This document shows, in pieces, positions 1,219 to 32,821 of a stretch of 56,121 nucleotides of DNA. Each line of letters starts with the position of its first letter. Position 1 is the stretch's first letter. The notes below the pieces were generated by a model. It was given only the letters and a program-made list of their open reading frames with translations. It searched no databases and was not told where the DNA came from. A program made the translations under genes and the position numbers. Source of the DNA: a virus (taxonomy: Duplodnaviria; Caudoviricetes); IMG/VR virus record IMGVR_UViG_3300046328_000525, positions 1 to 56,121 of that record, one strand, 5' to 3'.

Positions 1219-1291
1219 TGGTCCATAGCTCAGATGGTAGAGCGCCGAACTGTTAATTCGGATGTCCCAGGATCGAGACCTGGTGGACCAG
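1219..1291 (+). tRNA. tRNA-Asn(GUU)
   Basis: acceptor TGGTCCA/TGGACCA; anticodon arm CCGAA-CTGTTAA-TTCGG; T-loop ATCGAGA. Confidence 0.9.
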
Positions 1292-1296
1292 CGTAT

Positions 1297-1378
1297 GCCC
1301 GAATGGTGGAATAGGTATACACGGCAGACTTAAAATTTGCTGCTTCACAGCATGTCGGTTCAAGTCCGACTTCGGGTA
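1297..1378 (+). tRNA. tRNA-Leu(UAA)
   Basis: acceptor GCCCGAA/TTCGGGT; GCAGA-CTTAAAA-TTTGC; long variable arm; TTCAAGT. Confidence 0.92.
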
Positions 1379-3431: not shown

Positions 3432-3469
3432 TGCTAGCCCTTCGAATTTAAAAATAGTATACTGGTAAC

Positions 3470-4024
3470 ATGACATGTATAGTAGCTATTGCCCAAAATG
3501 GTACAGTTTATATGGGATCCGACCATGCCGCATCTGATGATAAGTCTGGCTGGATCATATCAAGAAAAGAACCAAAGGTCTTTAAAGTCGGACAATACGG
3601 AATAGGTTTTACTGATTCTTTTAGAATGGGTCAGATACTTCAGTATAACTGGACACCACCAAAGTACACTCCAACAAAAACAAACTCTGGTTTAGATAAA
3701 TTTATGAGAACTAAGTTTATTGATTCAATTAAAGATGCATTTTCTCAACATGGTTTTGGTAGTCATTCCCCAGGACAAGATGCGGAAGGCGGAATTTTTA
3801 TTGTAGGGGTAGAAGGTAGAGTCTTTACTGTAGATGAAGACTTCCATGTTGGAGAAGCCGTAGTTAATTATATGGCAGAAGGCTCTGGGGCAATGTTTGC
3901 TCTAGGTGCATTATATGCAACAAAGAATCAAAAGAACCCTAAAATGCGTATGAAGGTGGCTTTAGAAGCTGCAACAGAGTTTTCTATGAGTGTAGCTCCA
4001 CCCTTTACATACATTCAAGTCTAG
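3470..4024 (+). CDS. HslV/proteasome beta-like Ntn protease
   Basis: N-terminal MTCIVAI (Thr1), GSD, PKVF, GSGxxFAxGAL. Confidence 0.85.
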   Translation: MTCIVAIAQNGTVYMGSDHAASDDKSGWIISRKEPKVFKVGQYGIGFTDSFRMGQILQYNWTPPKYTPTKTNSGLDKFMRTKFIDSIKDAFSQHGFGSHSPGQDAEGGIFIVGVEGRVFTVDEDFHVGEAVVNYMAEGSGAMFALGALYATKNQKNPKMRMKVALEAATEFSMSVAPPFTYIQV

Positions 4025-14215: not shown

Positions 14216-14292
14216 GATCTCATAGCTCAATTGGTTAGAGCGCTACCCTGTCACGGTAGAGGTTGCGAGTTCAAGTCTCGTTGGGGTCGCCA
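14216..14292 (+). tRNA. tRNA-Asp(GUC)
   Basis: CTACC-CTGTCAC-GGTAG; encoded CCA. Confidence 0.93.
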
Positions 14293-14293
14293 A

Positions 14294-14367
14294 GCGTCAA
14301 TAGCCCAAATGGTAGAGGCGTCAGTCTTAGGAACTGATGGTTGTAGGTTCGAGTCCTACTTGATGCA
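14294..14367 (+). tRNA. tRNA-Leu(UAG) with short variable loop
   Basis: TCAGT-CTTAGGA-ACTGA; 5-nt variable region; A73. Confidence 0.85.
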
Positions 14368-14377
14368 CGATATTAAG

Positions 14378-14521
14378 GTTGAGTGGCAGGTGTATAGACT
14401 GACTCCCGACGGGGACAACTGGAGGCCAACGAGCTTATGTAAAGCCTCATATATCAGATTAGTAAGTTAGTTTGCTCGTAGACTTATTAATCAGCCCTAC
14501 TGCAACATAGAAGTTGTCCCA
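14378..14521 (+). ncRNA. putative structured RNA in tRNA cluster
   Basis: GGGACAACT/AGTTGTCCC closing stem; GATTAGTAAGTT/GACTTATTAATC; GAGGC/GCCTC. Confidence 0.55.
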
Positions 14522-14558
14522 TTAAATTGGCGTTGAACTTCTTACAGGATAGGGATTT

Positions 14559-14629
14559 AGGGTCTAAGTGTTACGGAAGCACTACCGTCTCCAAAGCGGT
14601 AAGCCTAGGTTCGACTCCTAGAGACTCTG
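14559..14629 (+). tRNA. tRNA-Trp(CCA)
   Basis: AGGGTCT/AGACTCT; ACCGT-CTCCAAA-GCGGT. Confidence 0.88.
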
Positions 14630-14785
14630 CGGGTAACATTTGTATTGCAGACTATAGTTTAACTAGCTATTAAACTGAACGTCGACTGCTTACGCAAATT
14701 GCAGGGGCAACTAGGAGTCTACTGCACGATCTCGTCGGGGGATTCGGTTAATGTCCTTACAGTGTGGAATCTATAAACTGACCCG
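14630..14785 (+). ncRNA. putative multibranch RNA in tRNA cluster
   Basis: CGGGT/ACCCG ends; AGTTTAA/TTAAACT, TGCAG/CTGCA and further hairpins. Confidence 0.5.
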
Positions 14786-14792
14786 ACATAAT

Positions 14793-14875
14793 GGAAGTAT
14801 GGCAGAGTGGTCGAATGCAACGGTTTGCTAAATCGTAGATCGAAAGATCCATAGGTTCGAATCCTATTACTTCCG
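14793..14875 (+). tRNA. tRNA-Ser(GCU)
   Basis: GGAAGTA/TACTTCC; ACGGT-TTGCTAA-ATCGT; long arm; G73. Confidence 0.92.
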
Positions 14876-14879
14876 CTTT

Positions 14880-14959
14880 CCGTCATATGTTCCAAGGTGG
14901 GACAGGGGACTGTAAATCCCCCGCTGATAGCATGCTTGGTTCGATTCCAAGATGACGGA
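14880..14959 (+). tRNA. tRNA-Tyr(GUA) with C1:G72
   Basis: CCGTCAT/ATGACGG-A; GGGGA-CTGTAAA-TCCCC; long variable arm. Confidence 0.85.
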
Positions 14960-14964
14960 CTCGT

Positions 14965-15038
14965 TCTCTCTTCGTCCAACGGTAGGACTCCTGATTTTGG
15001 CTCAGGCAATCTTGGTTCGAATCCAGGGGAGAGAGCCA
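14965..15038 (+). tRNA. tRNA-Gln(UUG)
   Basis: CCTGA-TTTTGGC-TCAGG; encoded CCA. Confidence 0.9.
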
Positions 15039-25055: not shown

Positions 25056-25223
25056 GTGGCATATTATAGCGGACCCCACCGACAAATGGTGAAATTTCGG
25101 GCGATTTTAAATGTGATACGTAACACATATTTTTATCCCTCAATATATGGGGGCTCTGATCAATTTTGTCAAGTCGACACGCCGTAGCGTGAGCAGTTTC
25201 ACATCATGCTCAGGATGATTTAT

Positions 25224-26237
25224 TTAGCCCGCCAGAGCCATTACCTGCTTTACGATTTTATTCTTCTCAGCGGTAACAACAGGGTCGAATCCTGATGCAC
25301 CCGCCATGAGTGTTTCACCATTGCCACGAGCAGAGCGGAAATAATCAATGCGTTCAGTAAGAGCATTAACTACACCCCAAGCGGTACCCTTGATGTTGGT
25401 CTGAGTTGGTGAGTTGAAATAAATGTCATCAATTAAGGTGACTTTATTTTCCCACTTTGTGAGAGCCTGCTTTGACTTATCTTCTTCAGGCTTTGGATAC
25501 ATTGCACGAATAATTTCGTGGAACTTCTTATCTGAAACTTCAGTTTCAAATAGTGCCTTAGCCTGCTTTTCAAACTCATCAAAGTAACCAAGAGTAAGCC
25601 CAAGAGTCTCACGAGCAATTTGAATTTTACCCTCAGCGGTCTGAGTGTGACGGATTTTAAAAGATTGCTTTGCATTACGCATTGCAAGATTTAAAGTGTT
25701 TTGGCATACAACACGAACAGGTGTAACAGCAGCCTGCACCGCAACAGAACCGTCGTGTGATGTCCATACGATTAGATAGAGTTTTGTCTCATCGTTTGCA
25801 CCCTGAGGGTCTAGAACCATTGTGCGAGGAATTTCAACAGTACCGAACACAACTTTGCCATTACGCAAAGAGCCAGCGGATTCCCAGCGACATGCAGGGT
25901 CTGCATCGTGAATTGCATCGGCAAATTGAAATAGTTCCTCATTCTGAACTACCTTATAACGCTTACCGACATTGGCAAGAACATCAGTTCCACCATTGAA
26001 AGGGTTGGTACGCAATACGAGATGAGAATTTGAAACATCATTCCAAGATTCATCTACGTGATCGGTTAGCGGCGAGAGTCGAACATTCCAATTCGAGAGT
26101 TTAGCTTCATCGAGCATGAGTTGAGTTGAAACTTCCTCATCTTGTGAGAAGATGCGGTTTGCAAGATTATGCCATGCAGGTGCGCCACGCAATGCAAATG
26201 CAACTTCGCCATTAACAGTTTCGAGATTATGAGCCAT
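25224..26237 (-). CDS. DUF932-family (phage/plasmid TIGR03299-like) protein
   Basis: MAHN..., PAWH.L, Y.VVQN, ESAGSL..G, SHDGS, TPVRVVCQNTL, IRHT, GTAWG..NA.TE. Confidence 0.9.
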   Translation of the reverse strand: MAHNLETVNGEVAFALRGAPAWHNLANRIFSQDEEVSTQLMLDEAKLSNWNVRLSPLTDHVDESWNDVSNSHLVLRTNPFNGGTDVLANVGKRYKVVQNEELFQFADAIHDADPACRWESAGSLRNGKVVFGTVEIPRTMVLDPQGANDETKLYLIVWTSHDGSVAVQAAVTPVRVVCQNTLNLAMRNAKQSFKIRHTQTAEGKIQIARETLGLTLGYFDEFEKQAKALFETEVSDKKFHEIIRAMYPKPEEDKSKQALTKWENKVTLIDDIYFNSPTQTNIKGTAWGVVNALTERIDYFRSARGNGETLMAGASGFDPVVTAEKNKIVKQVMALAG

Positions 26238-26457
26238 GATTTTCCTCTTTCGTTTGATTGATTAGGCAATTATAACAGGCGGGTCTGACAAATGATAGTC
26301 TAATTTGATTCCATCTCATAGACTGAGATGTGTGCAACATCACAATTTTCAGGGTGTTTTGGTGCTTGACTTAAATGGATCGAGGCCCCCGCAGTATTTG
26401 GGGGCATTTTTTAAAATTGTCAAGCGGGAAGTTTAAAGAGATTCCCAGCTCTTGCTA

Positions 26458-26709
26458 TTACGATAAGATTAACTGATTACCGATTTTAGCTTTGACATTC
26501 TGTACTGTTTCCATTGGGATAAACATTGCGGTTGTCTTCTTCTTTTTTAGCGAATCAAAAACATACGCATGAACGGTTGAGCTGAACTTACTGATGTTGC
26601 TGAATACATATTCGGTGAGCAGTTCTTTGTCTACACCTTGATCCGAATACATGGTGACATCATTTGATTTGATGTCATCATAAATTTCAATGCGATAACG
26701 ATTACGCAT
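26458..26709 (-). CDS. hypothetical protein
   Basis: AAAGGA RBS. Confidence 0.7.
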   Translation of the reverse strand: MRNRYRIEIYDDIKSNDVTMYSDQGVDKELLTEYVFSNISKFSSTVHAYVFDSLKKKKTTAMFIPMETVQNVKAKIGNQLILS

Positions 26710-26778
26710 TTTGTTTCCTTTGTTAGTAGGGACACCCGAAGGTGTGAGCAGTTTGGCGACTTACTCAGGTCGTTGGAT

Positions 26779-27177
26779 TTATAGGTACTGTGCGATTGAC
26801 TTGAAAGTTGAAGTTGAAACGAAATCCTCATCTGTCATCTTCAAGATGCGAATACCATTTTCAATCTCTTGGATTTCGTACTGACCCAATTCGTTTTCTA
26901 GTCGCTCAATCTCTGGCTCATCAGGAAGTTTAACTCCGTTTGCAATCTCATAATTTACTGAGAGAGAGTTACGCCATGAGTGCTTGCTGATTGAGTCAAT
27001 AGTCAATGAGTCCTTGAACTCCTTGAGAATTGTCTTAAAATACTTATCTTGTGCTACCTTGTAAGCATCACGCTTCTTTTCGTTTGATGCTGCAACCTTT
27101 ACATTATTAGTAATCTTATCTTCAAGAGCCTTGATTACTTTAACTGTTGCTACCTTAACTGTTACTGCTCTAGCCAT
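26779..27177 (-). CDS. hypothetical protein
   Basis: promoter plus ACGAAAGAGG RBS. Confidence 0.75.
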   Translation of the reverse strand: MARAVTVKVATVKVIKALEDKITNNVKVAASNEKKRDAYKVAQDKYFKTILKEFKDSLTIDSISKHSWRNSLSVNYEIANGVKLPDEPEIERLENELGQYEIQEIENGIRILKMTDEDFVSTSTFKSIAQYL

Positions 27178-32746: not shown

Positions 32747-32821
32747 GGACCTATAGCTTAATCTGGTTAAAGCGCTTGTCTTATATACAAGTGAATCTCG
32801 GTTCAAATCCGAGTGGGTCTA
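32747..32821 (+). tRNA. tRNA-Ile(UAU)
   Basis: GGACCTA/TGGGTCT-A; CTTGT-CTTATAT-ACAAG; TTCAAAT. Confidence 0.88.

Follow-up and report, generated by a model that had tools for sequence, protein, structure and literature searches.

A widespread, apparently undescribed H-type RNA pseudoknot family located after stop codons in phages and mobile elements

To our knowledge, structured RNAs that recur nearly unchanged across phages of hosts as diverse as those considered here are rare, and the known examples are mostly ribozymes, tRNAs and riboswitches. The luteovirus-type frameshift pseudoknots of beet western yellows virus (BWYV), pea enation mosaic virus (PEMV) and sugarcane yellow leaf virus (ScYLV) are about 28 nucleotides (nt) long, with a short first loop (L1) beginning with C, a 1-nt junction, and an A-rich third loop (L3) that crosses the minor groove of a stem of 4-5 base pairs (bp); their spacer from the A-site codon is 5-9 nt. 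The preQ1-I aptamer and the pistol ribozyme, both found in phages, are small H-type pseudoknots in which a loop pairs 3' of an A-rich linker. In the 3'-end module of the eukaryotic, nuclear MALAT1 and MEN-beta RNAs, a triple helix clamps an A-rich tract and is followed by a tRNA-like RNase P site, and the PeSL cassettes of T4-type phages combine a DNA-level early promoter/terminator with an ordinary stem-loop between shuffled small genes. The closest described motif is STAXI, in which small pseudoknots with UUCG loops are arranged in tandem in the vicinity of genes for Ssb, topoisomerase, antirestriction proteins and integrase (PMC2864571). Here we describe a 28-nt element that occurs three times on the minus strand of IMG/VR virus record IMGVR_UViG_3300046328_000525 (the window, meaning the whole stretch analysed, 56,121 bases), each time a few nt after a stop codon. 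The comparative data show that the element is real and widespread and that it forms an H-type pseudoknot family, apparently undescribed so far, in phages and mobile elements.

The window is the complete virus record, has 37.5% G+C, is estimated to represent about half of the viral genome, and encodes tail proteins, ribonucleotide reductase and eight tRNAs. On its minus strand a 132-amino-acid (aa) open reading frame (ORF), an 83-aa ORF and a gene for a 337-aa DUF932 protein follow one another, each with a TAA stop and each followed by one copy of the element. Copy 3 (26745-26772; 46.1 bits with the covariance model used below) lies 6 nt past the TAA (26779-26781) of the 132-aa ORF (26779-27177). 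Its first helix (P1) pairs CGAC (26769-26772) with GUCG (26757-26760), L1 is the C at 26768, the second helix (P2) pairs UGAGUA (26762-26767) with UGCUCA (26745-26750) through one U.G pair among its pairs, the junction is the A at 26761, and L3 is CCAAAC (26751-26756); the same core was found in related loci. Copy 2 (26425-26453; 30.0 bits) begins 4 nt past the TAA of the tandem stops TAA TAG (26455-26460) that close the 83-aa ORF (26458-26709), with P1 formed by AAGAG (26449-26453) and CUCUU (26436-26440), L1 by the C at 26448, P2 by UGGGAA (26442-26447) and UUCCCG (26425-26430), the junction by the U at 26441, and L3 by UAAAC (26431-26435). In its homologue in a related locus (L004), P2 reads GGGGA/UCCCC. 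Copy 1 (25190-25217; 45.4 bits) starts 6 nt past the TAA (25224-25226) of the DUF932 gene (25224-26237) and consists of P1 CAUC (25214-25217)/GAUG (25202-25205), L1 C at 25213, P2 UGAGCA (25207-25212)/UGCUCA (25190-25195), junction U at 25206 and L3 UGAAAC (25196-25201). The register common to the three copies is thus P1 of 4-5 bp, C, UGRGNA, U or A, the P1 partner, NNAAAC and UKCYCA.

An earlier note on this DNA had quoted the same three minus-strand stretches and placed each within about 7 nt of a stop codon, in agreement with the distances measured here. Its P1 helices stand for copies 2 and 3; at the copy at 25190 its AUCAU/AUGAU pairing was one base out of register and shared an A with P2, and the register that fits the family is CAUC/GAUG, then C, then UGAGCA. 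P2 can be 6 bp, with an outer U-A or U.G pair, so that the copies end at 25190, 26425 and 26745. No further copies were detected in the window: a descriptor scan returned exactly these three on the minus strand and none on the plus strand, an IUPAC pattern gave no forward matches, three reverse matches and none in a backwards control, and the next-best covariance model score after the three copies was 10.4 bits. First-order Markov copies of the window yielded 0.33 descriptor matches per 56 kb, with three or more in 1 of 100 simulations; because of this chance rate the window alone is suggestive, not conclusive, and it is the comparative data that settle the reality of the element.

The DUF932 protein had 264 relatives in IMG/VR, and 80 of their loci were used as the comparative set. 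A regular expression without any pairing requirement matched 163 times on the gene strand versus 12 times on the other strand of these loci, in homologous intergenic slots. A generic pseudoknot scan gave 403 matches; when only those with an L3 ending in AAC are counted, the gene strand had 148 and the opposite strand 5. An alignment was then made of 48 distinct copies from the 80 loci, selected with a pairing filter. Standard pairs occupied 92.0% of its cells compared with 76.6% in shuffled controls, and 26-38% when the partners were slid by 1-3 columns. Eight of the 11 pairs changed on both sides (81 cells), including all five pairs of P1 and three of the six of P2, and the covariation score was reached by none of 500 shuffles. 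The inner three pairs of P1 used A-U, U-A, G-C and C-G, and P2 occurred as GAGCA/UGCUC, GAGUA/UACUC, GGGGA/UCCCC, GGGAA/UUCCC and AGGCA/UGCCU. In view of that filter, the count was repeated on 145 distinct covariance-model matches from unrelated phage contigs and metagenome-assembled genome (MAG) contigs, using a model from which P2 was absent. In this second alignment, whose P1 percentages lean towards structure because it was fitted to P1, 89.6% of the cells paired, nine of the 11 pairs changed on both sides (225 cells), and again 0 of 500 shuffles reached the covariation score. Slid controls across the two alignments paired at 24-44%.

The H-type pseudoknot class, defined by two helices with compensatory changes, is therefore strongly supported, and the covarying P1 and P2 that the earlier note had read from three copies now rest on hundreds. 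The constancy of CUG and AAAC was likewise supported. The geometry is P1 of 4-5 bp, P2 of 5-6 bp, an L1 of 1-2 nt starting with C, a 1-nt junction and an A-rich L3 ending in AAAC. P1 was 4 bp in 186 and L3 was 6 nt in 158 of 281 distinct copies, and L1 started with CU in 389 of 423 raw matches. Invariant bases were the C of L1, the U next to it, one G-C and one A-U pair of P2, and AAAC. G.U pairs occurred only when the gene strand was read (34 U.G at one P2 pair in the 145-copy set), which identifies the gene strand as the one that folds. The computed energies of the helices alone were -1.5 to -2.9 kcal/mol for P1 and -3.6 to -5.4 kcal/mol for P2; since neither is stable by itself, the fold behaves as a unit.

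Five related near-complete genomes (105-117 kb) carried 1-6 copies each, some of them far from the DUF932 region. A pattern specifying 17 bases, in which P1 was not required, matched at least 120 IMG/VR stretches and at least 118 stretches of bacterial or archaeal genome contigs. Among the matches listed, a P1 of at least 4 bp was present in 83 of 105 viral and 43 of 82 genome matches, compared with a chance expectation that we estimate at about 5%. The genome contigs among them, from MAGs or isolates, were labelled Lachnospiraceae, Saccharibacteria, Aminicenantes, Anaerolineae, Calothrix, Lacticaseibacillus, Clostridium, Polynucleobacter, Alistipes, Flavobacteriaceae and Omnitrophica, with one Methanobrevibacter MAG, several of which may represent prophages or phage contigs that entered a bin. 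One copy each was found in three cultured phages: Mycobacterium phage Labelle, which grows on the laboratory strain M. smegmatis mc2 155 (element at ON108649 56438-56472, 47.8 bits, spacer of 6 nt, tRNA-Gln about 180 nt on), cyanophage S-RIM4 (41.4 bits, spacer of 10 nt, next start 29 nt past P2) and the T7-like Paracoccus phage ParMal1 (43.8 bits, spacer of 6 nt, next start 25 nt past P2). About 16 of the 28 bases were nearly invariant among phages of actinobacteria, cyanobacteria, alphaproteobacteria, Firmicutes and Bacteroidota.

Rfam, which the earlier note had proposed to search, holds no family in release 15 that covers the element: none overlapped it at the gathering threshold across the whole window, at E values up to 10 on 25100-26900, or at E values up to 10 on the three cultured-phage loci. 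Weak snoRNA and miRNA matches within 25100-26900 were in coding sequence and were rejected as chance. Compared with the luteovirus-type pseudoknots, the element has no slippery heptamer and no overlapping frame, and its P2 has 5-6 bp instead of 3 bp. It shares a similar size class and loop-to-3' pairing with the preQ1-I aptamer and the pistol ribozyme, but differs from preQ1-I in its one-base second loop (L2), the lack of a ligand-pairing C loop, and its position after a stop codon instead of in a 5' leader overlapping the Shine-Dalgarno sequence, and from pistol in the lack of P2/P3 helices and of a conserved GU site. A pistol-like layout was rejected, as a UNCG hairpin behind the pseudoknot is a feature of this phage lineage only. 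So was a hammerhead core (CUGANGA ... GAAA), in which the G8-equivalent position would be C or U and the bases are paired in P2, and a tRNA-acceptor mimic with an ACCA tail, since an A follows P2 in only 47-71% of copies and the next bases are not conserved. The literature searched contained no description of the motif, although it could stand under a code name in the tables of PMC10690425, which catalogues 8,495 candidate RNAs from IMG/VR, or in those of PMC2864571.

The element is also not STAXI. The STAXI model RF01728 (Rfam gathering cut-off 40.5 bits) had no match in the window at E values up to 10; it scored 134.3 bits in Escherichia coli O157 Sakai as a positive control, and our pseudoknot model reached at best 6.6 bits on that true STAXI locus. 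RF01728 was not found in the 151 gammaproteobacterial genomes sampled, nor in CFT073. A published STAXI primer sequence matched two unrelated MAG contigs. The two motifs have in common small H-type pseudoknots, associated UUCG mini-hairpins, the same question of whether RNA or single-stranded DNA is the folded form, and perhaps a neighbourhood of mobile-element DNA-handling genes such as those for antirestriction and Ssb (PMC2864571). STAXI, however, comprises 2-3 tandem units of about 45 nt, whereas the element occurs as single 28-nt units with whole genes between copies. In the consensus STAXI unit the partner strand is 5' of the stem, a UGAGA loop holds the 3' partner, and the UUCG hairpin is inside the loop; in the element the partner strand is 3' of P1 and the UNCG hairpin, if present, is outside the fold. 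STAXI is reported from Enterobacteriales, and the element spans many phyla.

For the genomic context, copies were grouped into those of the DUF932 lineage (set A), other viral contigs (set B) and genome contigs (set C). The nearest upstream ORF was on the same strand in 71 of 72, 123 of 136 and 48 of 60 distinct copies (sets A, B and C), and an upstream ORF on the same strand combined with a downstream ORF on the opposite strand was seen in 58 copies, compared with 7 in the reverse layout. Among the matches listed, the distance from stop to P1 peaked at 4-11 nt (42 of 73 viral and 16 of 30 MAG copies with an upstream ORF), and the next start was 20-40 nt downstream in 35 of 76 viral and 12 of 38 genome copies with an ORF within 400 nt. 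The sequence after P2 was poor in G and rich in U: at least five U in the first 9 nt were present in 20 of 72, 39 of 136 and 19 of 62 copies (A, B and C) versus 1, 6 and 9 in an upstream control (28-31% versus 1-15%), and in the pooled set a U tract directly followed P2 in 78 of 270 distinct copies compared with 16 of 270 in the control. None of the three window copies has such a tract, and the terminator scan called none of them. A tRNA began 4-14 nt downstream in 66 of 169, 15 of 140 and 1 of 67 copies (82 of 376 overall), many of the 66 in set A being at homologous positions and hence not independent; the tRNAs were for Asp, Arg, Ser, Asn and Gly. An upstream tRNA within 200 nt was found in 0, 1 and 1 copies. 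Most safely described, the element is a boundary module between cistrons with a bias towards the 3' ends of genes.

No protein family was shared by the neighbours: among 103 upstream ORFs DUF932 accounted for 15 and HSP20 for 5, with no other family above 5, and among 114 downstream ORFs no family exceeded 3. Neighbours of early or anti-restriction type included DUF932, ArdA, ArdC_N, single-stranded DNA (ssDNA)-binding protein, DUF3768, DUF2958 and DUF4192; ArdA, ArdC_N, the ssDNA-binding protein and a topoisomerase zinc ribbon were each seen in only 1-2 of the 103 or 114 neighbouring ORFs. In the leading region of the F plasmid (NC_002483, 64438-65259), a DUF932 protein is encoded beside antirestriction, Ssb and PsiB genes, and neither STAXI nor the pseudoknot motif was found in that leading region. 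The DUF932 gene of the window thus belongs to a family typical of the early-entry regions of mobile elements. On an Alistipes finegoldii contig a self-cleaving RAGATH-1 hammerhead ribozyme (L241:1272-1348, minus strand, 72.2 bits) was located one small ORF upstream of a copy, so that the two RNAs flank this ORF. A small P-loop kinase (AAA_33, polynucleotide-kinase-like) stood just after the pseudoknot in two unrelated contexts, ParMal1 (L370:752-1210) and a second one (L095/L096), and may point to a link with RNA repair or tRNA metabolism.

Related loci revealed what can take the place of the element. Between the DUF932 stop and a tRNA-Asp gene, 71 of the 80 loci held the pseudoknot followed by a U-rich spacer of 9-12 nt, and the other nine held a 9-10 bp GC-rich hairpin followed by UUUUUAUUU. 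In the slot after the 83-aa gene, the pseudoknot was present in the window and in two relatives (L004 and L010) and a variant in a third (L049), and at least 10 of the 21 loci inspected carried a long GC hairpin no more than about 10 nt from the stop. Like intrinsic terminators and 3' stabilising stem-loops, the element follows stop codons, occupies the same slots in relatives and has a U-rich tail in a subset of copies; it differs from them in being a pseudoknot with conserved loops, a total of 9-11 bp, mostly no U tract and a low copy number.

The surroundings of the window copies were compared with those of their relatives. In this lineage a UUCG or UACG mini-hairpin often directly follows the pseudoknot, and 10 of the 12 tetraloop hairpins found after pseudoknots were in set A. 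Directly 3' of copy 3 is CACC-UUCG-GGUG (26733-26744, minus strand), followed by the leader CUACUAACAAAGGAAAC and the ATG of the 83-aa ORF at 26709, 35 nt past the pseudoknot; relatives keep this whole block of pseudoknot, UNCG hairpin and leader. Directly 3' of copy 1 is CGC-UACG-GCG (25180-25189, minus strand), which can be extended to CACGC/GCGUG, overlapping the end of P2. It is followed by a TTGACA hexamer (25167-25172, minus strand), at which the sigma-70 scan called no complete promoter. This lineage thereby resembles the PeSL cassettes, in that a conserved intergenic cassette of pseudoknot and mini-hairpin, then TTGACA, stands between small early genes, but the element is a covarying pseudoknot and no full promoter was called. 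Relatives carry a tRNA-Asp right after the copy that follows the DUF932 gene and the window does not; the eight tRNAs of the window (1219-1378, 14216-15035 and 32747-32821, plus strand) are on the strand opposite to the pseudoknot region, and none adjoins a pseudoknot. Behind copy 2 lies a GC-rich hairpin, GCCCCC-loop-GGGGGC (26385-26405, minus strand), which the terminator scan scored on the plus strand, where the U run is; its homologues in relatives have the U run on the gene strand instead, and the hairpin, placed between copy 2 and the DUF932 promoter region, may terminate transcription in both directions.

Some further features of this region were noted. Long inverted repeats common to relatives lie between the 83-aa gene and DUF932, namely GGTTATCCACAGG...CCTGTGGATAAC and TGTGAGATTACTCACA (L007, L019 and others, at about 3830-3990), and at the corresponding place the window has a TGTG...CACA palindrome (26300-26360, minus strand); these repeats ahead of the DUF932 gene look like operator sites. 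In some relatives (L013, L018, L048, L067, L070 and others, at about 3440-3500) 25-40 nt are inserted ahead of the pseudoknot, after the stop of the 132-aa-type gene, for instance TTTGGGGGGCAGAACTAAAGTCCTGAACCCAAA, and the insert is able to form a hairpin of its own. A distant DNA search of 25100-26900 against a phage collection returned only weak matches to DUF945/DUF932-type genes of Streptomyces phages, with 64-72% identity over at most 21% of the query and nothing bearing on the pseudoknot.

Compensatory changes preserve the fold, which is located on the sense strand behind stop codons and whose slots are taken in some relatives by ordinary GC-rich, terminator-like hairpins. Mainly because a plain stem-loop can replace it, the pseudoknot is read here as a structural 3' boundary, stabiliser or terminator. 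We propose, with a probability of about 0.45, that the upstream message is capped in cis by this compact element, which would mark its 3' boundary, block exonucleases and in some copies aid termination. The pseudoknot would fold just beyond the footprint of a ribosome terminating at the stop codon, so that the upstream message would end in a structure hard to pass for 3'-to-5' exonucleases. That end could arise by termination in the roughly 30% of copies with a directly adjoining U-rich tract, at a separate terminator a few bases on, or from an endonuclease cut just downstream, which at copies with a tRNA 4-14 nt on would probably be made by RNase P. The conserved loop bases may make triplex contacts like those of the luteovirus-type pseudoknots. 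The earlier note had suggested an exonuclease block, a processing or termination signal, or a protein-binding site. The exonuclease, processing and termination roles are partly supported, as they would fit the contexts found, namely the position after same-strand stops, the swap with terminator-like hairpins in relatives, and the tRNAs 4-14 nt downstream.

A bolder version of the 3' boundary cap, which we consider somewhat doubtful, is a host-independent, triplex-braced 28-nt RNA cap that would halt 3'-to-5' exonucleases by its fold alone, with a MALAT1-like RNase P cut at the tRNA-linked copies. By analogy with the MALAT1 module, a compact structured cap would be followed, after a few bases, by a tRNA-shaped RNase P substrate, and cleavage would leave an RNA ending in the cap; in contrast to MALAT1, a real tRNA follows, and most copies have no tRNA.

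Several observations weigh against a boundary cap in either form. With 1-6 copies per 105-117 kb genome and one in each of the three cultured phages, the element is scarcer than a generic stabiliser or terminator should be, and a merely stable structure would not need loops kept invariant across phyla. These same features, the low copy number (1-6 per genome) and the near-identical loops across host phyla, are unlike a generic stabiliser, so a specific partner, such as the protein-binding site proposed earlier, may be involved. A separate terminator hairpin is found within a few bases of copy 2 and its homologues, which makes extra protection there look redundant, and about 70% of copies are without a U tract. 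Some copies are fixed at 33-35 nt from the downstream start while their distance from the upstream stop varies from 9 to 49 nt, an insertion having shifted the element to 28-49 nt from that stop in some relatives, and one copy (L066:3495) lies 87 nt past the previous stop and 28 nt ahead of the next start. The context ORFs, moreover, were called mechanically and include spurious antisense frames.

A specific partner or an activity of the RNA itself would suit the pattern of invariant loops and freely covarying stems across phyla, which is that of aptamers and small ribozymes. The element could then be a protein or ligand site, an RNase P substrate mimic, or a tiny self-cleaving ribozyme that separates cistrons. 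The low copy number agrees with this, as do the early and anti-restriction-type gene niche that is also home to self-cleaving ribozymes and STAXI, the RAGATH-1 hammerhead one ORF upstream of the Alistipes copy, and the tight placement before tRNAs, which are RNase P sites. We nevertheless regard such a role as unlikely, because the neighbours share no protein family, no expression platform is apparent (the Shine-Dalgarno region being outside P2), the single-base L2 would leave no obvious preQ1-I-type ligand pocket, the base after P2 is too variable for a conserved ACCA tail, no Rfam ribozyme or riboswitch model matched at E values up to 10, and plain hairpins can replace the element. The ribosome is another partner common to all host phyla and would account for the near-identical sequence. 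With a stop codon in the A site, the pseudoknot would stand at the mRNA entry channel and could alter pausing, release, recycling, re-initiation or rescue, in the manner of frameshift and readthrough pseudoknots or of repetitive extragenic palindromic (REP) elements near stop codons. Its 4-11 nt spacer from the stop is that of frameshift and readthrough stimulators, its L1 C, 1-nt junction and A-rich L3 resemble the luteovirus frameshift pseudoknots, and the downstream start 20-40 nt away in 35 of the 76 listed viral copies would agree with such a role. For programmed -1 frameshifting or readthrough the spacer fits, but no frame continues past the stops, and such products are unlikely because the stops ahead of many copies are tandem or multi-frame ones (TAATAG in the window, TAATAAATAA in relatives). 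Where a tRNA, a terminator or a convergent gene comes next, no cistron follows for re-initiation, the element is retained in some homologous copies with spacers of up to 28-49 nt, and plain GC hairpins take its place in relatives, so we hold an action on the ribosome to be quite unlikely.

Those hairpins include canonical terminators in the same slot of nine of the 80 relatives and, together with the U-rich tract directly after P2 in about 30% of copies (for example of the CTGCTC-TTTTATT type in several MAG contigs), they would agree with a pure intrinsic terminator whose stem is P2 braced by P1. This is nonetheless very improbable as the whole function, considering that about 70% of copies, including all three in the window, lack the U tract, that a separate terminator adjoins the copy 2 homologues, and that a tRNA starts 4-14 nt on in 82 of 376 copies, where full termination would silence the tRNA because there is no room for a promoter of its own. 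The genes for DNA handling and anti-restriction among the neighbours would permit a fold formed in ssDNA during replication, repair or entry, an argument once made for STAXI (PMC2864571). We give this hardly any credence: the element is on the sense strand of the flanking genes just past their stop codons, the host phages differ widely in their modes of replication and entry, and the UUCG and UACG loops of the following mini-hairpins stabilise RNA rather than DNA, as is likewise argued in the STAXI report (PMC2864571).

Because the motif is short (28 nt) and present in three cultured phages, these readings can be separated by ordinary experiments. Should the pseudoknot prove to bind a partner or to be catalytic, small functional RNAs would gain a new class. 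Should it prove to define or protect mRNA 3' ends, message stability could be controlled with a part that is portable and independent of the host, and it would become clear how the upstream message stays intact when a tRNA is excised from the same transcript. If the triplex-braced cap proves true, the eukaryotic and viral nuclease-resistant RNA structures would have their first counterpart in phages or bacteria, and the near-identity of sequence across phyla would be what a minimal fold needs in order to resist mechanically, to work in any cell and to be portable among phages.

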